In this document: positions 8,163 to 32,243 of the stretch, in pieces
Layout of the letters: the number at the start of each line of letters is the position of its first letter
Position numbering within the stretch: the stretch's first letter is position 1
Source of the DNA: Yuukianura sp. NJ FZ-2021
Lineage: Eukaryota
Direction of reading: 5' to 3'
DNA length: 64,000 nt
Assembly: GCA_046563655.1 (NCBI GenBank)
Contig: CM102287.1
Span: forward strand, 1,922,001 to 1,986,000
Notes under the pieces: generated by a model
The model's database searches: none
What the model was told of the DNA's origin: nothing
Seen by the model: only the letters and a program-made list of their open reading frames with translations
Translations under genes and position numbers: made by a program

Positions 8163-9082
8163 ATGGAAGTCCTCTTGACGTATGAGGGGAGATTAAAAAC
8201 GTACCAGAACGCTCAAGTCAGATGGCCGTTGAGTTTTGTGACCCCGGAAGCATGTTCGTGTGCGGGATTTTACTACCTTGGAGTAGATGACATGGTGGGT
8301 AATTTTCAACTTTTTCAAAAAAAAAAAAAAGAAGTCACGCTGTTGAATAATAATTTTTTGAACAGGTTGCTTGTCCATATTGTCGAGGTGTCGTTGGGCA
8401 GTGGGTGGTTGGTGACGACCCGTTGTTGGAGCACCGTAAACATTTCCCGCGCTGTCCGTATGTTGTAGTTCTAGTAGGTCTGCTGTCCGGGGTTGGATTC
8501 GTAGTTGCTCCAGATGCAACTAGAACCGTGGCGGGTGCCACGGCTGGATTTGACGTTTCCGGAAATGCAAACACTCGAACCGGAATGCCCAGCGCGGGAA
8601 GTACCGATGTTTCCGGTTCTGCTAACACTGCCGCCGACCCTGGTTCGTTGGGAATACATGGTTCCGGTGCTGGAACCGCAGGAACTCAGGCAGCCGAGCC
8701 CGATGCCGGCATTCCTGGCTCGGCAAGAACCGACGTGGCTGGGGCAACCGCGGCAGAAACCGACATAGCTGGCTCGGCAAGAACGTATGTGAACGAAATA
8801 ACTACACTCGAGACGGACATACGCGGCGCGGGAGGAACGCTACCCATCTTAAGAGCAGCATCCTGTGCTTTGGCATATGACGTTTATAATTTGGCGGCTG
8901 CCGACGTAACCCGCGACAATTCGAGTAACAGTCTTACTTGTAAGATTTGTTGGGACAAAGAAGCCTGTGACGTATTCCTACCGTGCAAACATCTGATTGC
9001 CTGTCCAACATGTTCGTTATCGTTAAAAAGTTGTGCAGTTTGCCGAGAACCTATACTAATTAGATTGAAGGTGTTTACTTAG
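8163..9082 (+). CDS. iap: Inhibitor of apoptosis (one BIR + C-terminal RING), intron 8295-8365
   Basis: Splicing GT..AG joins RLKTY..WP..AGFYYLGVDDM to VACPYC..W..GDDPLLEHRKHFPRCP. RING is CKICWDKEACDVFLPCKHLIACPTC...CAVCR. Confidence 0.92.
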
Positions 9083-9317
9083 TAGTGAAGTAGTGATATT
9101 CTATATTCAGTTTTCTAAGTCATCTCACAACCCAATTCATGTATCATTGAATTGAGTTGTGGGATGACTTTTGTTGCTGTGAGTTCGAATCTTAGTTTGG
9201 TATATGAATAAAAAAAAAGCAATGTGTTTATGCAACGTTTGGATGACGTGTTTTTGAATTAGTATTTAATGAGCTAAACTTCTGAGTAACTAAACATTCG
9301 TTGTCGGAGCTGAGACC

Positions 9318-12300
9318 ATGGACGGGATCAGGAAATTTAAGTGCGACAATTGTGGTGACCGTTTTGATTCACAAGACTCTTATTGGGATCACGCGTTTCA
9401 ACTTCATGTTTACGACCTTCGCATACCACGTCAAGGTATTTTTGAACAAAAAAAAATAAGATTTGAGTTGGGCACCTTTTGAGGGTATGTTACTTTGGCT
9501 AGAGTGGGAGCCTCGGGACGATCAGGTTCCGGGTCCAAGTCGTCCCAGAGTAACAGGAAGTGACGGATCTGAAGCGAGGAATTTTGGAAGTCCAGAAGAA
9601 CCAATTCTTGATGCAATTTTAGAAGGGCTGCTTGATTATGAAGGTAGCAACAAGAGAAAATGACTCAATTGCATAGTCCTGAAATACAAAAAATTTTTTT
9701 TGTAGAAGAATTGTCAGAGACTCAGCAATCGGTCATGAATGCAGACTTGGCAAACTATCGCGAGAGATTCTGTTCACACTGCGCCATCAAGTTTGAGAAC
9801 GCCGGAGAGCTCGATTACCATCGGTTCGAGTTTCATCGGGAACTCTACACTGATCATGCGGAAGGTCAACAGTGGGGAGGAACTGAAAGTCGGCTTGAGA
9901 TTCGAGAAGTCATGAGGGCTGGACGTCGCCGAAATGGCGGTGATGGTGGCATCGTAAGAGAATTCGAAGTCGATTTGACTGAACGACTGTTTGCAGACGT
10001 GACTGGCGTGATGCGAAGTACAGCTAACGCCCTGACAATTTTGCTCGAGGGACTTGTTCAAGAGTTTAGGGGTCTGAAATTGATTGGAACATTGATTGCA
10101 GAGATGACTAGAAGATCAAGGGACCGGCCAGGTGAAGCCGAAGTCGAACGGTTTCCATTCAACAGTTTTCTACATGGGTGTTTTCATCAAAGTATGATTC
10201 AAACTATTCTGAGGCAGATGTTCTCGAAAATGAGGTTGTCTTTGGAATCATTCATTCACCACGGTTCGGGCTGGAAACTGAAGCGCTTCTTGCTACTTCA
10301 AGTTAGAGTTTTTGAGTTTAGGATGGACCGAGGGTCGGCTTGGATTCCAACTCCCAAAGTCATTCGCGACAAACGGTGCATCATAAATATTCGGAACAAT
10401 GACGAATTCTGCTTCAAGTACGCCGTCCTTGCAGAACTGAACCCACTTTACAAGAACCCAAATGTTGACTGGTACGCCTTTACCAATCCTAGGAATTATC
10501 AGAGAAATTGTGCCGAGATTGACTGGGATTGCTTAAATTTTCCGGTGACAATCGGACAACTTGACAAGTTCCACCACTTCAACCCACAGATTGCAGTTAA
10601 TGTGTTTGGCTACGAATCACGAGACGAACTTGCTCCAAGTTTGAAAGGCAAAAAGAAGATTGACATTTTCCCTCTTTATATTTGTAGAGAGAAAAGAGCA
10701 AAAAGTGTGGATTTGTTGTTAATAATCGATGGGAACAATTCTCATTACACACTGTTGCGTCAAAGTGATTATAATCCGACGGAGGGCTTGTCTCGATTAC
10801 TCGGAGAGGGTGAACGTAATTATGAAAAGTTTGTGTGTCGATTCTGTATGTGCTTCTCAACAAGTGGACTGAATTTGCAAACTCACCAAAAGTATTGTGC
10901 GTCACTGGACCTACAACGCGTCGTGTTACCAACCCAACAAATGTACACGTCGGACTTCATTGTGCAACGGCTTCCGGTGCCATATGTCATTTATTTAGAC
11001 TTTGAGGCACTTTTAGTACCTACGGATGGGATTGGTACTCGACAAATTGGTGATGTTTATAACGAACATTTTGACTGCGGCTGGTCAATGAGTATCATTG
11101 GACCTGACGGGTTTCTTGCGGACCGTGTTGTGACATTTTGTGGTCCGAATGCTGCACTGAAGTTGATTGACGAACTCGTATCTGTTGCAGCAAAGATATA
11201 TCCGATTTTGAAAAAAGATGTCGGCCGTGACCCGCGCTGGATCTAATCTGACTATACTAATCTCCTGTCAGCTTCAACTCACTGTATCCATTGTGGTTTA
11301 GAGTTTGTGCAAGGAGTTGACACTAAGTGCATTGACCATTGCCATATTACATCAGCAATTCGGGGAGTGAGTTGCGGTCCGTGTAACTTGAAAGCACAAG
11401 TCTGCTCATTTATTCCAGGTTTGTGTCATGGTTTTCGGCATTATGATTCAAAATTTATTGTGCAAGCATTACGTGCTAGTACAATTAAATCTGTGGAAGT
11501 GTTGGCGAGCAGCAGCGTCGAAAAGTTTACTTCGCTTCGCTTGACAACCCATGGAGACCATGTCTTACGAATGATTGACTCGTATCAGTTTATTAGTGCA
11601 AGCTTAGCAGAGCAAGTAAAAATGCTTGCCAAGGAGGGAAAAGACAAGTTTCCTGTGACATGTCAACATTTTGAAAAGTACGAAAGTAAAATCGATCTAC
11701 TTTTAAGGAAAGGGGTTTACCCCTACAGTTATTTTGACTGTATGGAGAGATTTGAGGAAACGTGTTTGCCACCAGCCGACAAATGGAAAAGCGATTTGAC
11801 TGGGAAATCCATCAGTCCTGAAGACTTTGAACATGCGCACACAGTTTGGAGGGAATTTGGCTGTCAAACATTGAGAGATTATCACAACTTATACGTTTCT
11901 CTTGATGTCTGTCTGCTGGCGGATTGTTTTCAGAATATGAGAAGAAGTATGCTCGAGAGCTTCCGTTTGGATCCTGCACATTATCTAACTCTTCCAGGAA
12001 TAGCATACGACGCTGCAATGTTGGCCGGAAAAGTGGATTACGAGTATTTGCGCGAGATTGACAAGTACATGTTTTTTGAACGCGGAATTCGGGGTGGAAT
12101 TTGTTCCGTCGGACTACGTTACGCAAAGGCGAATAACCCTTACTTGGGTGATTTGTATGACCCTACGCTTCCATTGAGTTACATTTGTTACTTGGATGCA
12201 AACGCCTTGTATGCAACTTGCCTTAGGAACTACGTTCCGTGGAAGGATTTTGTGTGGGAAAAGTCATTGGAAAACAGAACGAGAAATTTGGATGCTGTGG

Positions 12301-13566
12301 TGAAAATGATCATGGAAATGGAGGATTGTGGTCCGGAAGGATTAGTTTTGGAGGTAGATTTGGATTACCCACCGGAGTTACATGATTCTCACAATGACTA
12401 CCCATTAGCAGTACAACGAAGTGAAATAACATACGATTGGCTCTCCGACTACACGAAAGAAGTTTTGAAGAACGTGGGAGCTACACCTGGATCTTGTAAG
12501 AAAACAAAACTTCTTGGGACATTGTGCAACAAACGAGACTACGTTATTCATTACCGACTTTTGAAGTTATTTTTGGAGCTGGGCCTGAAACTTGTGAAAG
12601 TCCACAGGGGTATTCGGTTTACTCAAGGTCCATTGTTTCGTGTATACACTGACATTTGTATAACACGTCGTCGTCAAGCAACGAATCCAGTGGATAAGAA
12701 TTTTTACAAGGCGATGGGAAATATTTTGGCGGGCAAAGTTTACCAAAATGTTCGAAAATATAGACGGATCAACATTGCATTATCAAGAGAGAAGATGAGA
12801 GAATATGCCCGAAAGCCAACCGTTGCGGATGTCAAAATCATTCATGATGAGTGTGTTTTGTTTGTGATGAAGAAGTTAGCTGCTAGGCTGGATAAACCGA
12901 TATTTGTTGGGCAGTGCATTTTGGATGATTCCAAATGTAGGATGTACAGCTTTTACTACAAATGGTTGAAGCCGCGATATGGAGACAACATGAGACTGAT
13001 GTATACAGATACTGACAGTTTTTTGCTTCATATCAAGGCAGAGGATGTGTATGCAGATATTGCTGAAAGTGTACGAAACAATGAAGGAGTTTTTGACACG
13101 TCAAAATATGATCGAGAAAATAAAAGGTTCGGACATTTGTGGAGTGACCAATTTGAAGGAGTCGGTGGTTGTTTCAAGGATGAATGTGCCAACGAGGTAA
13201 TTTTGGAGGCTGTTGCATTGAAGCCAAAAATGTATGCAATAAAGATGTTGAAGGAAGATGGAACCCACGCTCAACTGAAGAAGGCAAAAGGTACTGTACG
13301 CTCTGTTGTCGAGAATGAATTGGATTTTGAAGATTACAAAAAAGTTTTGGAAGAAGGACGGTTCAAGGCTTACAGCATGAATATAATTAGAAGTTTAAAT
13401 CATCGTTTGTATACAACTACATTGTACAAAAAAAAGTTTGTCAGCGTATGAAGATAAGAGTTTTTATTTGTCACCAATTGATTCATTAAGATTTGGTCAT
13501 TATAGAATTGAGTTAGAAAAAAATTTGCATCGAATTGTAGATGATGATGTTGATGAAGATGAATAA
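9318..13566 (+). pseudogene. polB: Protein-primed family B DNA polymerase; introns 9436-9502 and 9644-9705, in-frame TAA 11244-11246, poly-A frameshift near 13430
   Basis: C2H2-like fingers, exonuclease YLDFEA, endonuclease VII-like CIHC...DHCH...CGPCN, YLDANALY, K...N...GK, YTDTDS, KKAKG. The shifted frame supplies the expected LSAYEDKS...FGHY tail. Confidence 0.92.
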
Positions 13567-13624: not shown

Positions 13625-14284
13625 ATGGAAATTCAATGTTCGTTGCAGCATCCGTTTGTTATGGTTTTGGCGGGTCCTACACAAAGTGGGAAAAGTACTT
13701 TGATAAGAAAAGTTTTGGAACGCATAGACGAAGCTGTTGAGCCGGAAATCAAGCGTATAATCTATTGCTATGCGGAGGATGAACCGGATTTTGCAAAAAC
13801 TGTAAAAGGAATTAATAGGAGAAACGGTGTTGAAATTGATTTTCGCCAAGGTATGGATCAACTTGATGTTGACGTTGGAAACAAGACGCCAACACTTGTT
13901 GTGCTGGATGACTTTATGGAAGACCTTGGGTCATCATTGGATATTTGTAAAATGGTTACCCGTGGTTCTCATCACCGGTCACTCTCCCTGATGATTACGA
14001 TTCAAAATTTTTTCTTCAAGGGATGTAGGAATTTGACATTAAATGCAAAGTATGTTGCGTTATTTCGTAATCCGAGAGATAAAACTATAATAAAATATCT
14101 GGGACGACAAATGAATGGCGGAAAATCAAATTCGACACTGGAAGAAGCATTTGAGGATGCAACAAAGAATAAGCCAAATAGCTATTTGTTTTTAGATATG
14201 TCTCAAAGTCAAAATGATGACTTTCGAATACGATCAAATGTATTTGCAGATCCAGAATCTTGTATAGTATATTTGAAAAAGTAA
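13625..14284 (+). CDS. A32/FtsK-like DNA packaging ATPase
   Basis: Walker A GPTQSGKS, Walker B LVVLDD, TRGSHHR..S...TIQN, FRNPRD. Confidence 0.93.
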   Translation: MEIQCSLQHPFVMVLAGPTQSGKSTLIRKVLERIDEAVEPEIKRIIYCYAEDEPDFAKTVKGINRRNGVEIDFRQGMDQLDVDVGNKTPTLVVLDDFMEDLGSSLDICKMVTRGSHHRSLSLMITIQNFFFKGCRNLTLNAKYVALFRNPRDKTIIKYLGRQMNGGKSNSTLEEAFEDATKNKPNSYLFLDMSQSQNDDFRIRSNVFADPESCIVYLKK

Positions 14285-14290
14285 CATACC

Positions 14291-14797: not shown

Positions 14798-15760
14798 TTA
14801 AACTGAAGACTGAGGAACGCGTTGCAGCTCTTCGTTGTAAAATATTCCAAATATGTCTTCACCTTTGCCGTCTTTTAACTTGTAAGTGATGGGAACGGAG
14901 TTGCAAACTTCAACAATCTGGAAAATTTCTTTTGTCCAGCTTTGGGCGTATCCCTTTTCAAAAAGTGTTTTATATTTACTAAGTAGTACGGAGTCTCCAA
15001 CATTGAAGGTAGCAGGTTTCCGTTTCGTTTGGTTTTGTTTTGGTAAGTGTCCGTACAAATTTAGAAATACTTCAGTTTTTGTGTCGTCATTGACTTGGTT
15101 TGGTGTACATTTTATGGAGCGATGATATGTGTTGTTGTATGAAGTTACAATATTTTGCAAAACATCTAAGAATTTTGTGGTCTGATTGTGTGTCATATAT
15201 CTCGCCAACCTTCTCATTAATGTTTGGTTAAATCTTTCAACAATAACTGCCTTCAGTTCTGATCTAGTACTAAAGAATGAAACAGAGTATTGTTTTAAAA
15301 GCTGTTTAACATTTCGATTTAAAAATTCTTTCCCTTCGTCAAATTGAATTGACTTTGGAGGGCCTCTTTTCTTAAAGATTTTTTGTAAAGCGTTTGCTAC
15401 TTGACTCCCAGTTTTATTTTTTAAAGGGATGACGTCAGCGACTTTAGAAAAACCGTCAATACAAGTCAACAAGAACTTATGATTCGTATTTGCTTCAGAA
15501 TACTTTGAAATATCGATTAGATCAATTATATACTGATATCTTATGGACGGAATAAAAACTTTTCGTCTTTTGTAGCGTTTCCGAGCCGGTTTGTGAAGAG
15601 TATAAGCCGGAATTTGTTCTAATGCTTTTACTACATCAGTTTTTGTGACCCCACTCTTCTTTTGAACTTTGAAAGTTCCTTCTAATCCTGAAAATGCAAA
15701 ACTTGAACGAGGATTGACGTAGTCTTTGCGTATTTTGTCTATCAAATGTTTCTGCTCCAT
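14798..15760 (-). CDS. int: Polinton retroviral-like (rve) integrase
   Basis: YTLHKPARKRY, IDLID, IDGFSK, IQFDEGKEF, VERFNQTL, YNNTYHRSI, FEKGY..SWTKEIF, FYNEELQ. Confidence 0.95.
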   Translation of the reverse strand: MEQKHLIDKIRKDYVNPRSSFAFSGLEGTFKVQKKSGVTKTDVVKALEQIPAYTLHKPARKRYKRRKVFIPSIRYQYIIDLIDISKYSEANTNHKFLLTCIDGFSKVADVIPLKNKTGSQVANALQKIFKKRGPPKSIQFDEGKEFLNRNVKQLLKQYSVSFFSTRSELKAVIVERFNQTLMRRLARYMTHNQTTKFLDVLQNIVTSYNNTYHRSIKCTPNQVNDDTKTEVFLNLYGHLPKQNQTKRKPATFNVGDSVLLSKYKTLFEKGYAQSWTKEIFQIVEVCNSVPITYKLKDGKGEDIFGIFYNEELQRVPQSSV

Positions 15761-17672: not shown

Positions 17673-18473
17673 ATGGCGCATCAACAGCGTGACACCTCAT
17701 TTTTTGTAACATTACAATCAAACGCATGTATGGATTTATTTCCAGATAATAAAATTTCAAATTTCAAGAACCGTCTTTCCACAACAATCTCACTGCCAGC
17801 TGGGCAATGGGAAGTTGCGCTCACAGAAATTTCATACACATTTGGAAATGCAATAATACATTCTGGTGACGTGTTATTTTCAACTTTCAAAAAAAGTGAA
17901 GATGAGTCAGTATCAAGCCTACAAACATATGTTTGTAGCAGAAACATTACAAGTGAACAGGAACTGTTACAAGAACTTTCATCTGCTCTAACCGGAGCAA
18001 CTTTTGAAATTAGGGACCACATCTTCTATTATCAATTCCCTTTGCTACATGAAGGAATTATAGTTTCCCAAAAATTGGTTGATATACTTGGACTACCTAA
18101 AGCAAATCTTTCTGTAACAAGTAGTGCTAAAGCTACAGAAAAACTCTTTTTAAAACAACCTTTTCAACTCAAAGGTCAAGGAACAATGCCAGTGTTTTTT
18201 AATACTGGAAATACAAAAATGTTTGTATACTGTAACCTAATTAAACCACAATTTGTTGGAGATGTACTTGTACAGTGTCTGAGAGTTGTCAATTATGATG
18301 GACACATACGACGCCAAGTTGTAAATGAATTTACACATCCATATTTTTTGGACCTTGCCGTAAGTGAGTTTGACACTGTCAAGATCTACTTATTAAATGA
18401 AGTTGGAGAAAATCTGGCATTACAATTTGGAAACGTCACGGCGACACTTCGCTTCCGTCAGCGAAAATATTAA
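17673..18473 (+). CDS. Minor capsid protein (penton)
   Basis: FFVTLQSNACMDLFPDNKISNFKNRL...WEVALTEISY, FVYCNLIKPQFVGD...LRVV, TLRFR. Confidence 0.88.
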   Translation: MAHQQRDTSFFVTLQSNACMDLFPDNKISNFKNRLSTTISLPAGQWEVALTEISYTFGNAIIHSGDVLFSTFKKSEDESVSSLQTYVCSRNITSEQELLQELSSALTGATFEIRDHIFYYQFPLLHEGIIVSQKLVDILGLPKANLSVTSSAKATEKLFLKQPFQLKGQGTMPVFFNTGNTKMFVYCNLIKPQFVGDVLVQCLRVVNYDGHIRRQVVNEFTHPYFLDLAVSEFDTVKIYLLNEVGENLALQFGNVTATLRFRQRKY

Positions 18474-18936: not shown

Positions 18937-19400
18937 ACAACAACAACAAAAAACAATGCCGAAAGTTAGGTCTTCTAAAGTTTCTCCTAGCACAGCTTCT
19001 TCTTCTTTGCCTTACACATTTGTTAGATCAGAAACACAACTCTTTGAAGAACCAATCTTTGATGTTAGTCTCGCATCAACCTCAGCTACGGAATTCCATT
19101 CAATCAACTCACTTTCAGACAATCAAGCCCCTCTGGAATTTTTTGTACAAGGAAATCAAACTGAACTAATCGACTTGTCTGAAACGAAACTTTATTTAAA
19201 AGTTAAAATTGTAAAGTCGAACGGCACGGATTTGGATGACAACAGCATTGTTGCTCCTGCCAACAATTTTCTTCACTCGCTATTTCTACAGTGTTCCATA
19301 TATCTCAATGAAGTTTTAATTACTCCTGCAAGTTTACAGTATGCCTACAGAGCATACTTGGAAACTTTACTCGGATATGGAAAAGAATACAAACGCTCTC

Positions 19401-19840
19401 TGTTAAAAATATGGTTAGAATAGATTAAATCATACAAACAAGAATATGCGTCAGAATAATGAATTAGAATTAGGACATCTGTCACTATTGACGTGAATGT
19501 AAATTAGGTTAAGGAGCAAAACAGGAATTGGTAAACTAATTATAAAGTAGGTAATTAAGTCACCTCATTTAGTTTACAATAACATAATAGACAAGGACAA
19601 GGAAAAGTCATAGTTGACGTAGGTTCTAAGAAAATACGTAGGAAATCGTTTTTGTCAAGGACACTAGGTCAGTGACTAATATTAAAATTAAGGTTAGTGT
19701 AGCCATATAAATACAAGTGATCTAGATAGGAAAAAGTGTCAGTGGTGCCTCGTAGAAACTACAAGTTTATAGTTCAAATAAATAAAACTTCAAAATCCAA
19801 AAGTGATTTATACGACTGAGTTTATTAGCAATTTTCAACA
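19401..19840 (+). repeat. Copia 5' LTR
   Basis: TGTTAAAA...TTTTCAACA, containing TATAAATA and AATAAA. One visible mismatch to the 3' LTR. Confidence 0.97.
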
Positions 19841-19854
19841 CGTTATCAGCACGA
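19841..19854 (+). promoter_or_regulatory. Copia PBS CGTTATCAGCACGA (half-tRNA-Ile type)
   Basis: Directly follows the LTR and is identical at 6135-6148. Confidence 0.75.
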
Positions 19855-19931: not shown

Positions 19932-22900
19932 ATGGCCTCCAACTCTAACCAATCATCTGTAGCTGTGCCCGGTGAGACCGTAACAAGTTACCATTTTTTA
20001 AACAAAAAATTCGATACTGATTCCATTACAAAACTTAACGAAGACAATTACATAACGTGGAAGCTGAGGTTAGAAAGCTTGTTTAGAGCACACGACATTT
20101 TGAAGGTAGTCAATGGGACTACGCCAAGACCTGCAAATGCAGGCGTTGACCAGAGCAAGTGGGACAAGCATAATAACGAGGCAATAAGTTGCATTTATCT
20201 TTGCATTAAGGACAAAGAGCTAAGTTCCATTGCAAGTTGTTCCACTGCTGCAGAAGCATGGAACAAACTGGCAACAATTCATCAAGACGTAAGCGGAGAG
20301 TCAAAAGGACTGCTCTGGCAAAAATTCTATAACGTCAAAACAAGCAGCGAAAAAGCGCTCTTCAGGCAATGATTGAAATCCAAAACCTTGCGGTTCAATT
20401 GAGGTCATTAGGCTCCGTCGTAGACGAGGAGTCTGAAGTCTCAAGAGTTATCACCAGTTTGGACGATAACAAATACAAGCATTTTAAGGAAGCTTGGAAG
20501 TCGGTCGAAAGTTCAAGGAGAACGACAGGAAATCTCCTGTCACGACTTAAAGCTTTGGATTTAGAGCAACCTAAAGAAAAACAGGCTGATGAGTCAGCAT
20601 CAAAATCCTTCTTTTCTAATGAAGGTAAAGAAGGAAAATTTAACAACCGCAAAGACAAGTCAAATGATATTTGCAGAATTTGCTCCAAGAAGGGGCATTG
20701 GGCAAGAGACTGTTTTCATAAAAATACTCCAGTCTCATACAAAAATATCCCTAAGGGTACAAAAATACGCCCGTACACAGGGACCTATAAACGAGACCCA
20801 AATTGGAAACCCAATGATCAGGGAAAACGGGAAAACAGAGATAGAAATGCCTACATGGTATGGCAGAGCGACGATCTAGCAGAACAATGGATAAACGATT
20901 CTGGCGCAGATCAACATTACTGTGGAAATCGAGAATGGTTCTCAGATTTCACAGTCTATGAGAAACCCAAAGAAATTCATATGGCAAATAATACGTGCAG
21001 TTACGCTGAGGGCTTTGGCACGGTCAAAGTAAATGCGTACAAACAAGGAAGATGGGAGGAAATTGAACTACATAACGTGGATTACATTCCCCAAGGCGTA
21101 AACCTAGTTTCAGAAAACGTGCTTCTGGAAAAAGGTTTTGAAGTAATGAAAAATAGATTTGGGGACATAACGTTCTTTTGGAACAATGAGCCGGATCTTG
21201 AGGCCGTTCGGAAGGACGGGCTTCAAATCATGAAATTCAAGCCCATAAAAGAAAACATGCTTTTACCTGCATAAAAGAAGTAACATGGCATAAGCGCCTT
21301 GCCCATATTAATGGTGAATTTCTAAAATTGACAAAAGAGAAAGAAGCTGCTCTTGGTTTAGAGCAAATGAAGGAGGAAGATTTTACTTGTGACTCCTGTC
21401 TTTTGGGAAAATCAAAGAAACAGGGATATAAATCCAGCCAGACGGAAAGCAATTTCAAAGAGGGTGAATGTCTTCACCTTGATCTGGGTTACGCAAATAC
21501 CACCTCCAAAAAGGGAAATAAATATTTCCTAGTCATTAAAGATCAGGCAAGCAACTTCAGGCAAGTTTATGCGCAGAAGACTAAAGATGAGACAGTGAAA
21601 AATATTAAGGACGCTGTTCACTTTATCGCTAATCAAACGGGAAATCATGTCAAAGTCATTCGGAGTGACAATGGCACTGAAATAATTAATGAGGAGTTAA
21701 AACAGTTTGTGTCCCAAAAGGGAATACAGTTGGGCACAAATGCTCCTTACTCAAGCGCGAGCAACGGTTTTATCGAAAGAGACATCAGAACCATTCAGGA
21801 TGCATCTCGTACAATGATAATAGAGGCAAATCTAAATGACACTTTCTAGGAAGATGCGGTAAAAACCGCAGTCTACTTTCTGAACAGAACTCTATCTTCC
21901 CGCAATAAAGTCAAAACGCCGTATGAGATGATTTTTGGTAAAAAGCCAAAATTACATCACGTCAAGACTTTTGGATGCGAAGCTTTCGCTCATAAAATGA
22001 CAAACGCAAACAAGTGGGAAGAGAAAGCAACAAGATGCATTCTGGTGGGGTACAACTCCGCCAACGATTTGTATAGGCTCTACAGTCCAGAAAATCGAGT
22101 TTACTTTGAACAAACAAAGCACGTGTCATTTAACGAAAAGGTCGAAAAAATCAAAATCAGAAATATCTTCCAAGAAGATATCACCGCAATAGAGACACTT
22201 CCAAAACCAGAGACAAAAATTGATTCAATGGATACGTCAAAATCTGAACCTGACAGCAATAAAATTGTTCTAAGGAAGGATTTGACAGGAGAATACAGAA
22301 TTGTTTCTCCCGCAGAAAACAAAAAATTTAACACGGATTGTGATTATGTAAATATTGAAAATTTACAAATCAAATCGGACACTGAAAATAATTCAGTCGA
22401 AATGACACCGGCACTCACGCATGACAATGAGTCTCTTAACGCAACGGTTAATACTACTGCTGGTAGTACTGAAAACACACTGCGCAGGTCCGCTCGCTTG
22501 CAGGCCAAAAATGCAAAATTCCAAATGTTTGTACAACAAACTGTTCCCAACTCTTACAAAGAGGCCATTCGAACACAAGAAGCTGACGAATGGAAACAGG
22601 CAATGGAAGATGAGTTCAATAGTCAACTCCAAAACAAAACGTGGATTTTAGTATCAAGACCCTTGGAAAGGAAAATACTCAAAAATCGATGGGTATTTCG
22701 CATTAAGACCAACCCTGACGGAACAATTGAAAAATATAAAGCCAGATTAGTAGTAAAAGGCTTTAATCAAGTAGAAGGGGTCGATTACGAAGAAACTTTT
22801 GCCCCGGTTTGTCGTTATGAAACAATTCGAATAATGCTGGCTCTAGCTGCTCAAGAAAGCTGGGATATGATTCAATTTGATATTGCCACAGCCTTCTTGA

Positions 22901-24192
22901 ATAGCAATTTAGACGAAGAAATATACATGGAGCAACCTGAAGGTTTCGAAGTTCAAGGTACTAGCATTAAAGGAGAGAGTTTAGTCTGTCTCCTTAAGAA
23001 GGGCTTGTACGGACTCAAGCAAGCGCCCCGGTGCTGGAATAATACTTTGAACAACGAACTTCAAAAATTAGGTTTTTCAGCTCTCACGTCGGATTATTGC
23101 GTTTACAAGAGAGCACAGGATAACAAAATTACTTTCATCATAATTTATGTCGATGACGGCATAATTATGGGAAATGACAAAAAGGAAAATCAACAAATCC
23201 TAGGGAGATTACAAAATGTCTTTAAATTGACAGTTGGAAACTTGACCAAGTTTCTTGGCATGGAGATCAAACAAAAGAAAAATAGCATTGTTATCAGTCA
23301 AAAAAGGTACATTGAATCTATGTTGGAAAGATTCAATATGTCAAATTGTAAACCACTTAACATTCCAATGAGCCCTGGTTTACAACTTAAAACAGCAGAG
23401 ACAAAAGGCAATTCAGACTTTGAATATCAGGAATTAGTAGGATCTTTATTGTTCCTGGCTAGATGTACTAGACCAGACATAGCATACAATGTTCACTATT
23501 TGTCACGTTTCTTTGGCGCCTATGACAAAGATCATTGGGAAGCCGCCAAAAACATTCTGAGATATCTAAAAGGGACAGCAGACTTGTCCATAGAATATAA
23601 AAAGGACTCGACCTTGACATTGGACGGTTATGTTGACGCAGATTATGGCTCAGACATCAACACAAGAAAGTCAACTACGGGTTGTCTATTCACCATAAAT
23701 GAAGCACCCATTATCTGGCTAAGCAGACGCCAAACATGCATTGCGTTATCTAGCACTGAAGCAGAGTACATTGCTCTGTCTCATGCCGGAAAAGAATCTA
23801 TCTGGCTGAGACACATTTTGGCTGAATGTGGTCATCCTCAAGAGCAAGTTGTCATTCAAACTGATTCCCAGAGTGCTATTAAACTGGCCAAAAATCCAGA
23901 ATATCATGACAAGACAAAACACATTGACATCCGCCATCACTACATACGCAACTTGATGGACAAAAAGTTGGTCACGTTACAGCACACTCCTGATAGTGTT
24001 CAACCGGCGGATATCCTGACCAAGGCAGTAAACAAAGAAACTTTTCTGAGAAAAAGAAAGTTAATGGGACTTGATGAACATCCCACATCCTATGCACATG
24101 CAGTAAAAAGGAAAATTTTGAAAACCACTGTCAGTTCTACTCCAGAGTCCGCGACAACAACCAACTCTAGTGCAACATTTAAAACTGGAAAA
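19932..24192 (+). pseudogene. pol: Copia Gag-Pol; frameshifts near 20353 and 21250, TAG at 21847-21849
   Basis: CRICSKKGHWARDC, WINDSGA, IRSDNGTE, NGFIER, YKARLVVKGF, QFDIATAFLN, LYGLKQAPRCW, IYVDD, YVDADY, SSTEAEY, KHIDIRHH, ADILTK. Confidence 0.95.
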
Positions 24193-25851
24193 ATGCATTT
24201 CATTTGCTGCCTTCTTCTTCTGATCACCATGGGTACCATCGGAGATGGCTCAGTGGTTCCTGCTCACAAGCAGGGTCAATTCGTTATCTGGCGACGAAAT
24301 CCTACTCCCGTTGTGACTGGCTTTCACATAGTTCAATCCAGAATTAAACTTGTGTCGCCGTGTGATCTTCTTTCACCACGTGACCCCGGAAGTCGATTCA
24401 TCAATGAAGTGATAGACAAGTGCGAGGACAATTATCACGAGATTGTATTGGACAATTTGAAAAAGATCTGCCCTCCACAACCAAAATCCTCAATGGCAAG
24501 AGGGAAGAGAGAGTTATTTCTTGCCATTGGTATTTTGGTAGTTGCCGCCATTGCCACCACCGGCATTGGACTAGGTGGACTAGCCCTCACCAAATCAATG
24601 TCAGTGCAAACACGACAAGAAGAAATGAAAATTGTGCTAGACGACCTCGAGAAAAAAGTTTTCCGAAACTTTGAAATCAACAAGAGTGTGCTACAAAAAG
24701 AAATTCTTAAATTGGCGGGAAAATTGGATCAAATTCGTAATCAAGTTCTGTATAACCAACAAGAAGCTGTGGAATGGGCTTATGTTGTTTCTTACTTAAT
24801 GGGTCGGATGTTAGAAGGAAGACAAGTCATACTCCAGACTGGAGAACTGTGGCGCAGCCGTCAACTAAGTAATGATTTTTTCTCTTACTTCAACATCACC
24901 TTACCTTGTGGAAGTAATTGCCCTGTGACCCACGGCACCTTTACTGGATGCTATATGGATGACGACGATGAAATCCATTTGGATTTTACCGTTCCAAATG
25001 TTGATCCGTCACTGATCTTGTTCGAGGCTGACACTTTCAAAATACGACAAACGGTAGGAAACAAAACATGTTTTCTTCAATATCGGGGTCCGAAGTCCGT
25101 CATCATGTCTACCACACGTGACTGCATTTTTGATACTTTCAATGAGAAATTGAACAAGGACTTTATTTTGAGCACGACGCAAACTTGCAAAAATTCGCTG
25201 CAGAAAACTCAGCAGGAATATTTCCAAGTAGATACTTGTGAAGCTACACAAACACCATTACCACCTTTCACCCAAGTGAAATTCTATGACAACGAATACT
25301 ATATCTACTGTCCGTCCAGCAACATAGAATACAATGGAAGAAAGATTCCGTGTTCCAACAGTGTGTTCACTCTTCCATTGTCAACATCCTTTACGTTGAA
25401 TGGGGTTAATTACACTGGCAACATTTTACAAAAAATCTACACGGAAACAGAAGATCCGATTCTAAGAAGCCAGTTGAATTGGCATCTCAATCCGGTGAAA
25501 GCGTCAAATCAATCCGTGGAAGAACTTGACAAGTTTTGGAACAAAGAAATACAGGACATAGAAGAAAAGACGCACCACATTAAAGAATTCGAATTTTCGG
25601 ATTCATCCTCCTCAAACAATTGGTGGGGATTGGCAGTACTTTTCATTCTCGTCCCTGGGAGCTTAATTGCCATGAAGATGGGAGTTCGTTATTACCACAG
25701 ACGCCAACACTTTCTAACTAGGCGACGTCTAGTAGCAACACGCTCAAGTCCTCCAGGAATTGAAATGGAGGTTTTGAATCCACCTGTCCCACGTCAACAA
25801 CCTGTACCGGAAACTCCAACCGTCAGCAATCATCACATCATTATCAGTTAG
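24193..25851 (+). CDS. env: Env-like class I fusion glycoprotein (552 aa), in frame with pol
   Basis: Signal-like MHFICCLLLLITMG, furin site RGKR (24499-24510), fusion-peptide-like LFLAIGILVVAAIATTGIGLGGLAL, heptad region, Cys-rich ectodomain, five N-x-S/T sequons, TM WWGLAVLFILVPGSLIAM and a basic cytoplasmic tail. Confidence 0.85.
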   Translation: MHFICCLLLLITMGTIGDGSVVPAHKQGQFVIWRRNPTPVVTGFHIVQSRIKLVSPCDLLSPRDPGSRFINEVIDKCEDNYHEIVLDNLKKICPPQPKSSMARGKRELFLAIGILVVAAIATTGIGLGGLALTKSMSVQTRQEEMKIVLDDLEKKVFRNFEINKSVLQKEILKLAGKLDQIRNQVLYNQQEAVEWAYVVSYLMGRMLEGRQVILQTGELWRSRQLSNDFFSYFNITLPCGSNCPVTHGTFTGCYMDDDDEIHLDFTVPNVDPSLILFEADTFKIRQTVGNKTCFLQYRGPKSVIMSTTRDCIFDTFNEKLNKDFILSTTQTCKNSLQKTQQEYFQVDTCEATQTPLPPFTQVKFYDNEYYIYCPSSNIEYNGRKIPCSNSVFTLPLSTSFTLNGVNYTGNILQKIYTETEDPILRSQLNWHLNPVKASNQSVEELDKFWNKEIQDIEEKTHHIKEFEFSDSSSSNNWWGLAVLFILVPGSLIAMKMGVRYYHRRQHFLTRRRLVATRSSPPGIEMEVLNPPVPRQQPVPETPTVSNHHIIIS

Positions 25852-25884
25852 ATTTACAGGTAACATATTCTTGTTTGAGAAGGG

Positions 25885-26324
25885 TGTTAAAAATATGGTT
25901 AGAATAGATTAAATCATACAAACAAGAATATGCGTCAGAATAATGAATTAGAATTAGGACATCTGTCACTATTGACGTGAATGTAAATTAGGTTAAGGAG
26001 CAAAACAGGAATTGGTAAACTAATTATAAAGTAGGTAATTAAGTCACCTCATTTAGTTTACAATAACATAATAGACAAGGACAAGGAAAAGTCATAGTTG
26101 ACGTAGGTTCTAAGAAAATACGTAGGAAATCGTTTTTGTCAAGGACACTAGGTCAGTGACTAATATTAAAATTAAGGTTAGTGTAGCCATATAAATACAA
26201 GTGATCTAGATAGGAAAAAGTGTCAGTGGTGCCTCGTAGAAACTACAAGTTTATTGTTCAAATAAATAAAACTTCAAAATCCAAAAGTGATTTATACGAC
26301 TGAGTTTATTAGCAATTTTCAACA
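25885..26324 (+). repeat. Copia 3' LTR
   Basis: Direct repeat of 19401-19840. Confidence 0.97.
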
Positions 26325-27227
26325 CTCTCAAAGTCAATGCTCCCTTTTCTACAAGGACAAAGATCCTAAATGTACAGATGAAACAAAAGAAGATGGATTT
26401 AAACAAAGATACACATTTGCAGTCAAAAGCAAAATAATTGAAATGGTTGGACGTCCGTTTACCGACCTTTGTGTCCAAAACAAATTTCTCGTTCCTTCAA
26501 TCGACTTACGCATTTCATTTTTAAGATCCACACCAGAGTTTTGTCTCGTTGCCAAAACAGCTGGTAACTACCAAGTTCAAATTCAAGATGCTCGCCTCAT
26601 TGTACAACGCCATCAACTTCTTCCCTCATTACTAACTTCAATTCTCCAAACTTGGGAGCATGGAAGGCCAGCAACATATCCAATGAAACGAGTTGAAATT
26701 AAAACATATACTCTATCCCCTGGCACAGTTACCAACGTCAACGAAAATCTCATTTCTGGTGTCATTTGTGATCGACTACTAATTGGACTTTTACCTTCAG
26801 AAAACTACATTGGATCTATAACCACAAATCCATTTGCATTTGAACACTTTGATTTGAGCTACATAAATGTTAGCATTAATGGTGACTCTGGAACTTCACT
26901 TGGGACACATGTAGACTTTACGCAAGATCAATATGTTCAACTCTACCACAATCTATTTTGTAGTCTCGGAATTGCCAACGATGACGTTGGACTAGATTTG
27001 AACCGTGAAGAATTCAAATCTCATCCGCTTATGCTATATAATCTCAGACATTCAAAAGAAGGTTTTCCTACTCCCAAATACGGCAACGTCAAAATTGATC
27101 TAAAATTTAAAACTGCACTCAAAAGCTCTGTCACCGTCCTTGTCTACGCCGAATTTCAATCCGTCCTACATATTGATTCCTCAAAATCAGTATACTTTAG
27201 AGACTACAGTCTTGCCAGCCTTCAACA

Positions 27228-27752
27228 ATGAATACACAACAAATTTACTCTTATCTGGCGAAAATTGTTGGCAAACATCCTTCCACTTTTGATGTAATTC
27301 CAATTGATCATTTAAATACCATGGAAATTTTCACCTACCCTCTTCTACTTGTCGTCAACAGTGCTCCTTCTCACCATCCAGGACAACATTGGCTAGCCCT
27401 GTTTAGAGAAAATTCAAAATCTCCACTAACATTTGTAGATTCTTATGGACTTGGTGTAGAAATGTATGATATAGCTCTGCAAAATTTTGCCAAACGTTTA
27501 AACACATCCATAATCGAAAACACAAAACAACTTCAAAGTATAAATTCTACAGTTTGCGGTGAGTATGCAATTTACTTTCTGTTTAAACTACTGCATTCCT
27601 GCTGTTTAATGTCAATCTACTGTAACTTTACTTCAAACACTATTACAAATGATAGGCTAGTAAAGCGGTTTGTTAGAAAACTGCTACGTCAAATAGTAAA
27701 AACTATCCCCCACTATGGCCCAACTCAATGTTGTACCCCACTTTGTAAATAA
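27228..27752 (+). CDS. Adenain-like cysteine protease
   Basis: VNSAPSHHPGQHWLA, FVDSYG, QLQSINSTVCGEYAIYFL (H-D-Q-C). Confidence 0.93.
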   Translation: MNTQQIYSYLAKIVGKHPSTFDVIPIDHLNTMEIFTYPLLLVVNSAPSHHPGQHWLALFRENSKSPLTFVDSYGLGVEMYDIALQNFAKRLNTSIIENTKQLQSINSTVCGEYAIYFLFKLLHSCCLMSIYCNFTSNTITNDRLVKRFVRKLLRQIVKTIPHYGPTQCCTPLCK

Positions 27753-27848: not shown

Positions 27849-28172
27849 CTAATCGTGAGGCATATCCTCAATTTCCTCCTTGGCAGAAGCGACGTCTCTC
27901 AAGCAGCTTTGGAGTGTGTCCGTAGCTTTGTCCAAGTCACACCCGACGGCACGGCAATAAATGTTCGTAAGTTTCCGCATGACATATGGAATGTTCCGTC
28001 CCTCAAAGTTTACCACCTTTCCCTTGCGTTTAAAGTACACCCAAGTGTATGGTCGTCCTTGAAAAACCGAGTCCCGATGAAAAACTTCCAACTTTTTGTC
28101 ATCATCCACATAATTCAACACCTCACGCTCCACGCCGTCATCTACGACTGCTTCATCTCCTAATACACACAC
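27849..28172 (-). CDS. Polinton hypothetical protein
   Basis: 107-aa ORF convergent on the protease, followed by AATAAA. No recognised domain. Confidence 0.4.
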   Translation of the reverse strand: MCVLGDEAVVDDGVEREVLNYVDDDKKLEVFHRDSVFQGRPYTWVYFKRKGKVVNFEGRNIPYVMRKLTNIYCRAVGCDLDKATDTLQSCLRDVASAKEEIEDMPHD

Positions 28173-28464
28173 AAAAAATCACTTTTCCCCAAATTTGCTA
28201 TTGTAATAAAAAGAATTACCTCTCTTGTCCATTGTTAAAAGTAAGAGACTCCTTCTCCAAATGCTTCTCAAAAACTGAATGATTTGACATGCAACAAGTG
28301 CCATGATTTTATACCCCACACAAAACGTACAGACAACGACTTTTTATTCAAATCGAAAAGATAAGACAGCAAAACGTACAGACAACGACTTTTTATTCAA
28401 ATGGAAAAAATAAGACAGCAAAACGTTTACATTTCAGAACTAGGCATGAGTCATATAGTGACGA

Positions 28465-30013
28465 TTAACAAATTGCATAGTCAGCCGCAATCGTTTCCAA
28501 CTCCTTCACCAGCAAGTCCTTTGCTTCCATGTCCTCACCAAACTTAAATGTAAACGACTTTCCCGCCAAAATCTGCCCTCCGCGGGTGCTTGCTGAACTC
28601 CCTCTTCCGTTGTCCATCACCACAAGAACCCCCAAAGCATCAGCTGCAGCCAAAATCTTGTTCCAACATTCCTTGTCCTTCTCAAAGCTGAACCTTGTTT
28701 GCTGACAGACACCGGACAGTGAAATTTCTCGTAGGGCTGGAAGTCTCGGAACTAGTTCCATGAAAACAACATGGTCAACCCCGCAAGAAAAATCAATGTG
28801 ACTTCCAAGGCGATCCAAATGTAGTTTTCTCAAATTTGGTAGAGATGCAATCGATCTTACAAATTCTCCACGTAACACATTTGCTCCGACCAGTGAAAGT
28901 TTGTAAATGGACTTTGGATAATTCTGCTGACAGACAGTTTTGTGGAACCCTTGAAATCTTCCGTGTCCAAAGAAGAATGGGCTGTGGCTGTGGGGAATAA
29001 ACTCCAAACGCAATTCCGTCAAATTATTCAGTTCTTCCAACCCCTCAATCCGATATGGCGACCTCGCGTCCATCACCACGTTACTAACATCCAACTTGCG
29101 TAGGCTTTCTTTACTATTCTTGATTATTGTAGCCACCCGTTGCATTGAAACTCCGTCTAGTTCCACCTTCAAGCATTCAAAAGCATTTGGCAAGTCCACC
29201 AACTTCCACCAAATACTAAAAAACGTGGACGGGAATGCGTAGTGCGGAAGACAACTGATCTCCAAAACCCGCAACTTTGGCAGCACCACGTTTGCCACGG
29301 GGCCAATCTCTCCAAACTCCATGTTGACCCGCATACACGTCAACCTCAAAACTTCCAACTTCTCATGATGCCTTTGGATGAATTCGAAGAAGCTGTGAAC
29401 TGTGCCCGGCTTGAATTTGTGACACAACTGGAACTCGGAAAGTTGTGCTAGTACAAAGTCGGGTTTTGAACACAATATTTCAAACAACCCGGGCTGTTGG
29501 TGCCTTCCCGCATTTCCATTGGACAAGCAAGAGTCAATCTTGAGTATCTTCAAGTTCTGGAAGTGGCTCACCATTTGAGATGGCGTGAATTGGGCACAAT
29601 TGATCTTTCCAATTGCACCAACGTGAAAAAAGTTCATCGCCGGAACAAAGTAAAACGTCCGAATTGCGTTCCGGAGACCGCTCATTGAGCAAGCGCCAGT
29701 AAATGTTACCTCCTGGACCAGGCTGCGAAACTTGATTGCAGGCAGCGCTCCATCGCGGTAGTTTTTCAGAACGAGATGCTTCACTTTCGCCTCCTTCACA
29801 TGCGGAGGAAGCCACTTGTTGTAGCACACCAGCTTCCAACATCCCAACCTAAACCAAAAAAAAATTCTTAAAAAAAAAATAACTCAAAGTCTCAACAGGA
29901 GGCGCCGTGAAAAATGTAGCGAACCTGTCAACGCGTTTTCTCCACTCGCTTGACACAAGCCGCATTCTACTCAGCTCATTATTGTTCAAAAACGACAGAA
30001 CAAGGGCCACCAT
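28465..30013 (-). CDS. F-box / leucine-rich-repeat protein, intron 29849-29924
   Basis: Exon MVALVLSFLNNNELSRMRLVSSEWRKRVD (F-box-like) splices in phase to the 460-aa ORF with LxxLxL repeats (FQNLKILKI, LPKLRVLEI, LNNLTELRL, LPNLRKLHL, LPALREISL). Confidence 0.78.
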
Positions 30014-30851
30014 CTAGTTAACAGAAAATTCATTCATTTTCTCATATATATATATCCTTCGGGGCTAAAGATTTTCCTAGTTGGGGCAACGTCAGAATCG
30101 CCCCCCCTCCCCCGAATCGAAATTTCTCTGGAAAAAACTGTCAAATCTCGCAGTGCCCCGCCTGATGTAAACAGGTCTCACAATGCCACGAGTGATGTAA
30201 ATCCAAAAACATATAAATTCTCACATCACCCCGCTTGATGTAGATTCTAAAACAGCCGTATTCTCAAATAACCCTGCCTGATGTCAATCCTAAAACACCC
30301 TACCCAACTGCTCACCTCGTTCGGAAGGCTTTCCAACTTCGAGTCTTCCATTGCCCTAGATGATCTAAAATTTGTGCTCAAATTGGTTTTCTAACAAGCG
30401 AGAGGTACTGTTACAAATGACAAAACAACTCAATTATATACCCCAGATCAAGGACAAAAGAAACGTTTCGTCTACGTCCAAAGTCCAACAAAATGACGTC
30501 ACCGCATGAAAGTGGAAAGTAACGACAAGATTACGACAGAAAACGATGGGTTGCATCCAAAGTTTGTCTTCCCACCAAAATACTACCTTACCATCTACTA
30601 CGATGCGAAAGTCCAAGGTCATGAGCCACCAAACCAAACTCCTAATATGTGATTATGCTAAAGTTTTTTCACATATTGCATTTCGGTGATATCAAATTTG
30701 TCCAAATTCTCTTCACATTTCTTAAAAAACAAAGTTGTTCTAGCACAATTTCAAAATACAAATAGCAAACCCAAAATAACCAAAACGTACAACGAAAAGA
30801 AAAACTTCAATTTATTTTTGCAAAGAAACACCTAATTGTTAGGTTTTGAAC

Positions 30852-32243
30852 CTAAAAGCCAACTCGGGTAAGGCGCAGTCGCATGGTGCGGGTTTCGCAC
30901 ATTGGACCAGCAGACCCCCCACGCTTTTTTGGAGGGCGCCCCCTCGGGCGTTTTGGCGGGACTGTTTCCTCCACCTCTTCCACTTCAGGCACTTCCCGCT
31001 TCACGGCAACGTTAGCAAGCTCTTGTTTGAGTCGATTCAACTCCTCCACAGCTTCCCGTTTTGCCGTTTCAGCAGCAGACGCAACTACTTCGGCCACTTG
31101 CTGGTTGTCCTGGGCAATTTTAATACGCTCCCGAAGTTCGCGAACTTTCTCCTCCGACTCCTCAAGTTTCTTGTGAACAATGTCAAACCTTGCGGCATAA
31201 GACACTTGTTCCTCCTTGTGACGAATGTTCGCCATGTGCCACCGAGCCTCGGATTCAACGAGTTTTTGGCTCAAATCCGCGCAGCGGGATTCGGAGGCTG
31301 CTCCCCGCATGTTCGCTTCGTCAATTAATCTTAAGTTGTTCGCCATGATTTTGTCCCTAAACAAAAAGTGATATTATTAGTTACACGGAGAAACACAAAC
31401 AAAAAGTCGACAAAAAAACTTATTTATAGATAGACAACATTTATAGATTGCTAAACCAAAACAAAATACCACTTACCACGCCGTAGTACGACAGTTTAGC
31501 TCCGTTTCTTTCTTGTTGAGTTCCGCCTGCAAGTTCATAATTGCTTTTGTTTTTTGGCAACTGCCAAACTCCAACTCCGCAACTCTTTGACCCCTGAAAA
31601 AAAAAACGAATTAACAGATTTAATTTTCCCACATAAATTCAAAAACTACAAAACGCTTACAATGCGTATTGCACAGGCAAAGATGCGATCCTGGCCTGCA
31701 GATCAATCACCGTGCTTTCGATGATCTGAATGCGATCACTGAAGATTTTAAAACAAAAACAAATTCTGTTTAACGTTTTCAATTAAAAAGTAAAAATAAA
31801 CTTACCTGTCAGAAGTAGCCACCAAACCGGTCCAGGCCATCCCGACTTCCTGCATGGACAGAAACAACCTTCGCCCCTCCACTTTCTCCCCAGTGGTCTT
31901 CACCATGGCCTGGCACACTGGACATGCCGTTCTGAAAAGAAAAAACAATATATTAACAAAATATTATAAAGGTTGAACTTAACATATAAAGTAGTAGTAC
32001 TTACTCAACTGTGGCAGAATCTCCAAGGCACCCAGGATGGACAGAATTTGCCCAATTCAGCATGCAAATCCTAAAAACACAAAGTTTTTTTTTAAATCCT
32101 GACCAAATATGCTAATCATAAGAATCTGATATAAATACTTACCAGTGCAACACGTGGTTGCACTCCGTGGAGATGACGATGGCCTTCACGTCCATCGGCT
32201 CATGATCCCCGAACTTGTCCAAACACACCGGACAAATAACCAT
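30852..32243 (-). CDS. RING-H2 + coiled-coil + AT-hook protein, six exons
   Basis: Exons about 32243-32143, 32070-32005, 31931-31806, 31738-31661, 31593-31478 and 31357-30852 join in frame through GT-AG introns. CPVC...CNHVLHWIC...CPVC, heptads, PKRPRGRPPKK. Confidence 0.85.

Follow-up and report, generated by a model that had tools for sequence, protein, structure and literature searches.

Baculoviruses combine, within one nuclear DNA virus, IAPs (usually with two BIRs), the F-box protein LEF-7 and proteins in which a RING is joined to a coiled coil or leucine zipper (IE2, PE38 and CG30). For the Polintons/Mavericks of animals, whether these elements still act as viruses is an open question, and the roles of their non-core genes are almost unstudied. 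The closest described relatives of the locus presented here are the adintoviruses, animal Polinton-type elements with accessory genes outside the core module, for which the available text of Starrett et al. 2021 (PMC8502044) reports Bcl2 and IAP homologues as well as 'Oncoid' genes that are typically located upstream of PolB; the terms 'F-box', 'RING' and 'BIR' occur 0 times in the main text of that paper, and its supplementary figures S1 and S2 might show similar genes. Nematode Mavericks (Widen et al.) also carry and spread extra protein-coding genes, the cargo named in the available part of the preprint (10.1101/2022.07.12.499685) being proteases, kinases and toxin-antidote genes, with 'F-box' occurring 0 times there. 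Accessory genes of coral polintoviruses are listed in PMC11131425, in whose available text 'apoptosis' and 'ubiquitin' are found 0 times and 'ring' 4 times (one passage concerning the rings of a tree figure). Here we describe a Polinton at positions 7734-32670 of a 64,000-nucleotide window (the whole stretch of DNA that was analysed, positions 1,922,001 to 1,986,000 of contig CM102287.1 in assembly GCA_046563655.1 of Yuukianura sp. NJ FZ-2021). In contrast to what the available text of PMC8502044 describes for adintoviruses, the accessory genes of this element contain introns and are arranged on the two arms so that all of them face inward.

We consider it probable that these accessory genes are kept by the element and are aimed at host ubiquitin and cell-death control. 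The preliminary description of this DNA had placed an IAP gene beside the left terminal inverted repeat (TIR) and F-box/LRR and RING-H2 genes beside the right TIR, all three pointing inward with introns and open frames, and our gene models and domain assignments inside the TIRs bear this out, with splicing predicted from the sequence. The set is larger than had been described, since a fourth spliced gene, whose product is an orphan, is located on the minus strand at 28232-27849 between the protease gene and the F-box gene; moreover, the RING-H2 gene, of which only the first exon had been noted, extends over six exons. All four genes face inward (Table 1), all nine of their predicted introns are of the GT..AG type, and all joined frames are open. 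Each gene has a TATA box (at 8082 for the IAP gene, 30440 for the F-box/LRR gene, 32324 for the RING-H2 gene and 28313 for the orphan gene) that lies 81, 89, 81 and 81 nt, respectively, upstream of the ATG, and each is followed, 34-125 nt past the stop, by AATAAA (9207; 28397 and 28348; 30816; and 27815, the last being 34 nt past the stop of the orphan gene). The two outermost ATGs are set back by 296 and 294 nt from where the TIRs end on the inside.

The intron of the IAP gene (8295-8365, 71 nt, GT..AG) is located inside the BIR: the Pfam BIR profile is matched over positions 1-37 by the first open reading frame (ORF) and over positions 36-69 by the second, and in the joined frame the CX2CX16HX6C zinc pattern is intact. 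The C-terminal RING matches zf-C3HC4_3 (1.6e-11) and also the RINGs of cIAP1, cIAP2 and XIAP, and the closest solved relative in the PDB is cIAP1 (2.6e-16), with both the BIR and the RING matched. Like proteins of the cIAP1/XIAP type, it ends in a RING and has a BIR whose zinc pattern is intact, but it has only one BIR, a long low-complexity linker in place of UBA and CARD, and a Leu for the groove Trp. From the usual baculovirus IAPs it differs in its single BIR, in the intron of its gene and in being encoded by an integrating element. The second exon found no match in a word-seeded protein search. (Note that an inverted repeat of ~20 nt, a hairpin seen by eye at 9110-9160, lies in the 3' untranslated region of this gene, between the stop and the AATAAA.)

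For the F-box/LRR gene, exon 2 alone matches the Pfam F-box (PF00646) at 21.4 bits, with a cut-off of 20.5, over profile positions 10-38 of 43, and exon 1, with its 12 codons, contributes by eye the 'LESLPNE' that starts the F-box. An intron therefore splits the F-box domain, as one splits the BIR in the IAP gene, so that the predicted splice completes the domain. The Pfam profile LRR_4 reached 21.4 bits, under its cut-off of 27. An AlphaFold2 model made from a 4-sequence alignment (mean pLDDT 63.7) has ~14 strand-helix repeats, and a Foldseek search of the PDB with this model placed the SCF receptors TIR1 and COI1 at the top (9.9e-7, for TIR1, to 2.2e-5, with TM-scores of ~0.4), followed by the LRRs of NLR proteins, with Skp2 at rank 17. 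As in TIR1, COI1 and Skp2, the F-box is at the N-terminus of the protein and an arc of LRRs comes after it, a likeness to be read with a sequence identity of 12-18% and with the modest scores of the model, the superposition and the LRR profile in mind.

When 1.84 billion representatives were scanned in full by HMMER with exon 3 of this gene (460 aa), 6 hits were obtained, 3 of which are true relatives: P0001 (33% identity, 8.7e-22), P0004 (22% over almost the full length, with half an F-box at its start) and P0005, all from short environmental contigs. The other 3 hits were rejected as relatives, being repeat or NACHT-LRR proteins. The C-terminal module of the protein is conserved, and is common only to the three environmental proteins. 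With just 3 distant relatives among so many representatives, the F-box/LRR gene is not a copy of a conserved host gene. The exon had no match in the word-seeded protein search, and IMG/VR contained no close relative of the F-box/LRR protein, of the protein-primed DNA polymerase B (pPolB) of this Polinton or of P0008, the nearest pPolB homologue. A metagenome scan yielded only the 2163-nt contig of P0001 (L001), on which the homologue is distributed among three frames and has nothing beside it that can be recognised as a gene.

The five introns of the RING-H2 gene are all GTAAG..YAG, with lengths of 67-120 nt. The spliced model contains an eight-ligand C3H2C3 RING that spans exons 1-3 and is followed by ~190 coiled-coil-like residues and a basic 'PKRPRGRPPKKRGG' tail. 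In the PDB, exon 1 (33 aa) found five RINGs of RNF4 (1.5e-7 to 1.7e-3), after which the best family was TRIM21 at only 0.46, and the first half of the RING matched the RNF4 structure 2xeu at 2.6e-4; with exon 1 alone zf-RING_2 gave 0.0055, under the cut-off, and the coiled-coil exon found nothing in the Atlas or the PDB. The likeness to RNF4 is in the first half of the RING, where the unusual '...IVSTEC.H' loop is matched as well. RNF4 has N-terminal SUMO-interacting motifs (SIMs) and a C-terminal C3HC4 RING, whereas the Polinton protein has an N-terminal C3H2C3 RING with a 22-residue second loop, so that the RNF4 layout of an N-terminal SIM cluster and a C-terminal RING is not that of the RING-H2 protein (SIM-like IQII and VIDL motifs were noted in it by eye only). 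In layout, the protein recalls TRAIP, in which an N-terminal RING-H2 is followed by a long coiled coil, and the RING/coiled-coil proteins of baculoviruses. The idea that it is a TRAIP homologue was dropped, the nearest solved RING being that of RNF4; the likeness to TRAIP is one of layout, and TRAIP is not among the 10 PDB matches of exon 1.

The intron of the orphan gene is 60 nt long (GT..AG) and leaves an open joined frame. Its 107-aa product had no Pfam or PDB match, and a single-sequence model of it is poor (pLDDT 52.9). An ORF on the plus strand at 27783-28163 was considered as the gene here and was rejected, since the spliced minus-strand model agrees better with the intronic position of the indels and with the TATA box and poly(A) signal. 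The idea of a shared promoter motif was also dropped: TGAGTCAY, with 9 occurrences in the window and 5.7 expected, was not significant, and TGACGTCA occurs 2 times with 1.1 expected. (Note that 7 of the 9 TGAGTCAY sites, which are AP-1-like, are inside the Polinton, at 7785, 8021, 9660, 15832, 28447, 32529 and 32612, with sites in each TIR, ahead of the IAP gene and of the RING gene, and in the divergent gap between the integrase gene and ORF15887; this clustering was noticed post hoc.)

The preliminary description had allowed that the accessory genes might be unique to this copy; those of the right arm recur in diverged sister copies. The right arm was found in four DNA sequencing runs, three from one sample of organism A and one (X3) from organism B in another study, with sampled-word shares of 0.68, 0.64, 0.12 and 0.51. 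Contigs were aligned only to 26100-32900, on the right arm, and the variants scored were 40 of 774 substitutions and 12 indels, another 70 indels being outside the scored set. A 4847-nt contig from X4 aligns over 27780-28363 and 28413-32506, where it differs by 378 letters and 108 gaps, corresponding to ~8% divergence; its gene order is unchanged from the orphan gene through to the TIR. Over 29720-30431, where the F-box gene has its 5' end, X1 and X2 contain both identical contigs and contigs that are ~12% diverged. X3 contributed pieces with 0-4 differences together with one more diverged piece. Contigs from X1 and X3 pass from the end of the first part of the capsid gene straight into 26321 onward and so skip the copia-type retrotransposon that splits this gene in the window, which indicates that copies with an unsplit capsid gene exist.

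All 12 scored indels are outside the coding models, though coding sequence makes up ~62% of the aligned stretch, and 7 of them are in predicted introns (28173 and 28174 in the orphan intron; 31597, 31612 and 31639 in intron 4 of the RING-H2 gene; 29878 and 30101), the other 5 being in the copia long terminal repeat (LTR), in the F-box 3' untranslated region and upstream of the RING ATG. Moreover, 9 of the 12 scored substitutions in exon 3 of the F-box gene are at third codon positions (binomial P = 0.004 versus one third). Synonymous changes account for 7 of these 12, for 15 of 17 in the capsid part and for 5 of 5 in the protease gene. The pattern on the right arm is consistent with constraint, as judged from sequence comparison, and the presence of these genes in diverged copies, with scored changes that avoid coding sequence or favour third positions, argues that the element maintains them.

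The main rival to this reading is that the genes are passengers, host fragments with introns (an IAP, an FBXL-like and a RING gene) that are carried without benefit and persist since the copies are young; we regard this as unlikely, and several observations weigh on its side or against maintenance by the element. The G+C content at third codon positions (GC3) of the accessory genes is 0.45-0.58, above the 0.25-0.31 of the ATPase, integrase, capsid and protease genes (that of pPolB is 0.41-0.45), and host capture would give the same. Note that the higher GC3 and the introns are compatible with either view. In addition, the set is missing from distant relatives. With the pPolB profile we found five Polinton-type IMG/VR contigs (31-38% identity), on which tblastn with the window proteins recovered the integrase on all five, the capsid on three, the protease on two and the ATPase on one, but gave 0 hits at E <= 0.1 for the four accessory proteins; similarly, BIR, RING, F-box and LRR were found at E <= 0.001 in 0 of the 92 ORFs of at least 90 aa on these contigs, a screen that small-exon genes would escape. 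The set is thus specific to the lineage of this Polinton. The five contigs carry other accessory genes (PLA2-like/DUF5679, discoidin, TBP/TFIIB and dUTPase). (On L006, which also has the dUTPase, TBP-like (8.8e-14) and TFIIB-like (5.4e-11) ORFs are adjacent at 9822-11071.)

The sister copies, too, supply such points. With 5 of 12 scored changes in the F-box gene non-synonymous, this gene is looser than the capsid gene, and 0 of the 40 scored substitutions are in RING/coiled-coil coding sequence. Some contigs from X1, X2 and X4 skip or replace 31365-31649, a stretch that includes the fifth exon of the RING gene. In single contigs, 29459-30472 or 29883-30799, from the 5' portion of the F-box gene, is missing, and a low-depth contig from X3 differs in length by a net 7 nt within F-box exon 3; not every sister copy is therefore intact. 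The copy in the window is itself dead, with two lesions, an in-frame TAA in pPolB and the copia insertion in the capsid gene. Finally, the BIR of the IAP has a Leu where cIAP1 ('gddpWveh') has the Trp that marks type II BIRs. The Trp of 'DDPW' lines the peptide-binding groove of such BIRs, and with Leu in its place the ligand specificity of the BIR is uncertain. Against passengers stand the gene order kept at ~8% divergence, the placement of every scored indel outside coding sequence, the bias of the F-box substitutions towards third codon positions, the TATA-to-ATG spacing that is alike in all four genes, and the small number of distant relatives of the F-box/LRR protein, which a captured copy of a conserved host gene would not lead one to expect.

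Selection might instead act through the host, with the Polinton multiplying IAP and F-box genes, and so spreading gene families, that serve it in, for example, stress or immune tolerance. Polintons do move host genes, as stated in the available text of PMC11131425, citing Widen et al., and IAP families are greatly expanded in some invertebrates, according to the available parts of PMC13159474 and PMC8905726. Neither of these two texts mentions carriage by Polintons: the available text of PMC13159474, on IAP repertoires, has 0 mentions of Polinton or Maverick, and in that of PMC8905726 such words occur only in unrelated places. Moreover, the genes are within a dead copy in a repeat-rich, satellite-flanked region, and the word-seeded protein searches with the F-box/LRR exon and the second IAP exon returned no host paralogues. 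We therefore hold cargo of this kind to be improbable. It is very improbable that the genes are selfish drive or toxin-antidote cargo as in nematode Mavericks, with a ubiquitin adaptor as the antidote; all that speaks for this is the precedent of such genes in Mavericks (10.1101/2022.07.12.499685, in its available part), whereas no toxin candidate was identified here, the 107-aa orphan being without a recognisable fold. Least credible of all is that we are dealing with chance ORFs and spurious domains, as the sub-cut-off Pfam scores for LRR and zf-RING_2 and the predicted nature of the splicing might suggest, given that the BIR, the IAP-type RING and the F-box are backed by Pfam or the PDB, that nine GT..AG introns restore frames and complete three split domains, and that the fold search gives SCF LRR receptors.

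If, as we favour, the element keeps these genes, its lineage would maintain arm genes just inside the TIRs, with the IAP gene on the left and the RING-H2/coiled-coil, F-box/LRR and orphan genes on the right. Each gene would be a self-contained Pol II-type unit, equipped with a TATA box, short introns to be spliced out and a poly(A) signal, and would be transcribed toward the middle of the Polinton. While the element is active in the nucleus, the accessory proteins may re-aim host ubiquitin and cell-death machinery. By means of its BIR and RING, the IAP could hold back caspase-dependent death or IAP-antagonist signalling, the F-box protein could dock onto host Skp1-Cul1 while its LRR arc marks a host protein for degradation, and the RING/coiled-coil protein could act as a dimeric nuclear E3. 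In these proposals we infer that the genes are expressed and spliced, what their products target, when they act and that the element benefits. The preliminary description had spoken of a virus-like early module for host manipulation that supports a real infectious cycle. The module finds agreement in genes that lie inside the TIRs, have TATA boxes and poly(A) signals of their own and, on the right arm, are kept in sister copies. 'Early' expression and an infectious cycle are inferences; since the copy is defective and sister copies with an unsplit capsid gene do not demonstrate particles or infection, the infectious cycle is unsupported.

The IAP in adintoviruses is already published, and the pair formed by the F-box/LRR and RING-coiled-coil genes appears to be new: in full-text literature on Polintons, Mavericks or adintoviruses together with IAP, F-box, RING or ubiquitin ligase, the only statement we found is that on IAP and Bcl2 in PMC8502044. 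It is tempting, if tentative, to go further and to see here an animal Polinton lineage that has, besides an orphan, its own three-part kit for hijacking the ubiquitin system (an SCF adaptor and two E3s, namely the IAP and a dimeric nuclear RING protein), in inward-facing, promoter-matched, spliced terminal cassettes. Baculoviruses and herpesviruses would parallel this gene programme, by convergence, in their immediate-early and host-control genes. In the baculoviruses a single nuclear DNA virus likewise combines proteins of these three kinds, and the likeness is one of kind. If true, the kit would mark these elements as replicating viruses that need the animal cell alive and permissive. The accessory set offers handles on the interaction with the host, namely F-box-Skp1 binding, the E3 activity of the two RINGs and protection from cell death by the IAP, and a marker for locating active relatives. 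Polinton-borne IAP and F-box genes could also feed lineage-specific family expansions in some invertebrates, a route that is not considered in the available text of the papers cited here.

The element that carries these genes is a recently integrated, now defective animal-type Polinton/Maverick (adintovirus-like element), with TIRs, pPolB, an rve integrase, a double jelly roll (DJR) capsid protein, a packaging ATPase and an adenain-like protease (Table 1). Its TIRs are the single strong pair found in the inverted-repeat search, and when both ends were aligned their identity began and ended abruptly at the coordinates called. With 1 mismatch per 133 positions between the TIRs, the Polinton copy is, like the insertion in its capsid gene, young. 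Polintons typically have a 6 bp target-site duplication. When both flanks were compared no such duplication was found at the ends of this copy, the flanking sequences being different; a later rearrangement or an assembly join is a possible cause of the mismatched flanks.

Table 1. Positions (in the 64,000-nt window) of the features of the Polinton and of the retrotransposon inserted in it
Feature	Position	Strand	Details
Left TIR	7734..7866	.	133 nt, 99% complementary to 32538-32670 (inverted-repeat search)
IAP gene	8163..9082	+	exons 8163-8294, 8366-9082; 282 aa; one BIR, Gly/Ala/Thr-rich linker, C-terminal RING
pPolB with endonuclease-VII-like insert	9318..13451	+	in-frame TAA 11244-11246; probable 5' exon 9318-9434
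Packaging ATPase	13625..14284	+	weak AAA and Adeno_IVa2; 37% identical to an L003 ORF bearing Adeno_IVa2 and Pox_A32
Retrovirus-type integrase	14798..15760	-	Pfam rve 3.1e-12; tblastn 5/5 IMG/VR Polinton-type loci
Candidate minor capsid (penton)	17673..18473	+	no Pfam match; 27% identical to the L003 ORF just ahead of the capsid gene
Major capsid, first part	18956..19400	+	ORF stops at copia LTR
Copia-type LTR retrotransposon in capsid gene	19401..26325	+	441-nt LTRs, 440/441 identical; 5-bp duplication CTCTC; RVT_2 2.9e-70
Major capsid, second part (double jelly roll)	26326..27231	+	Atlas clusters with DJR-like_dom 0.96-0.97
Adenain-like cysteine protease	27228..27752	+	Peptidase_C5 19.6 bits, cut-off 21.3 not reached
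Orphan gene	27849..28232	-	exons 28232-28220 (13 nt), 28159-27849 (311 nt); 107 aa
F-box/LRR gene	28465..30351	-	exons 30351-30316, 30013-29925, 29848-28465; 502 aa
RING-H2 + coiled coil + basic tail	30855..32243	-	six exons, 32243-32143, 32070-32005, 31931-31806, 31738-31661, 31593-31477, 31356-30855; 329 aa
Right TIR	32538..32670	.	pairs with 7734-7866; 32671-32900 beyond is 508-nt satellite

The structural genes had been described as intronless. This is so for the capsid, protease, ATPase and integrase genes, which are single ORFs; pPolB has a probable 5' exon, and the core genes are thus not all intronless. That exon has a weak C2H2 match, and C2H2 domains are found in several homologues. 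The remainder of pPolB is made up of a pair of ORFs (9648-11246 and 11247-13451) separated by the TAA. Because these pieces are colinear with the homologues P0007 and P0008 across the TAA, which leaves no space for an intron, the idea that the TAA is within a 45-nt intron was rejected, and the TAA is a nonsense change rather than a splice. Among 8000 scored candidates, pPolB had 3741 homologues at E <= 0.001, the best of them 54% identical; many have PF03175 and/or PF02945, some are labelled DNA-directed DNA polymerase by their sources, and the named homologues, which are ~40% identical, belong to gastropods, a sea anemone and snakes. The polymerase part itself had no direct match in Pfam, the PDB or PHROGs, and Endonuclease_7 was matched at 4.4e-5 in Pfam. 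(The T4 endonuclease VII-like module, PF02945, at 11247-11400 of the window, is between the N-terminal part of pPolB and the polymerase domain, and is common to many of the homologues.)

For the remaining core genes, the best guide is the contig L003. The second part of the capsid protein is 31% identical to its counterpart there and has a weak match to an L002 ORF with DJR-like_dom at 2.8e-41, and the protease is 35% identical to an L003 ORF that does reach the Peptidase_C5 cut-off. The minor capsid (penton) protein is a candidate, its function being proposed from position only. Just upstream of its gene, in a mid-Polinton intergenic gap at 17340-17573, is a tandem array of ~7-10 copies of a 24-nt unit.

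The copia-type insertion that splits the capsid gene is young, as its near-identical LTRs indicate. The suggestion that it lacks a target duplication was rejected, since the LTRs are really 441 nt and are flanked by CTCTC. Its pol ORF (21850-25851) runs in frame into a tail of ~580 aa without a Pfam match, in which one can make out by eye a basic cleavage-like site with a hydrophobic segment after it, repeats of heptad type, a part rich in Cys and, at the C-terminus, a membrane anchor; on an element of the copia type, such a tail would amount to an envelope-like extension.

The left flank of the Polinton is copia integrase coding sequence and the right flank is the 508-nt satellite. The former belongs to a second copia copy at 6111-7733, with ~72% DNA identity to the copia within the capsid gene; the left TIR abuts the middle of its integrase coding sequence, and the remainder does not resume past the right TIR. 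The satellite, of which 230 nt directly abut the right TIR, occupies 42000-64000, i.e. the final 22 kb of the window, reaches a word depth of up to ~5e5 at the flank in run X1, and recurs as an inverted fragment at 5068-5758, left of the flanking copia. Elsewhere in the window, a Helitron-like set of Rep/helicase ORFs is present to the right of the Polinton at 33914-39547, and the left end (1-4668) holds a gypsy-like gag-pol together with a separate integrase fragment.

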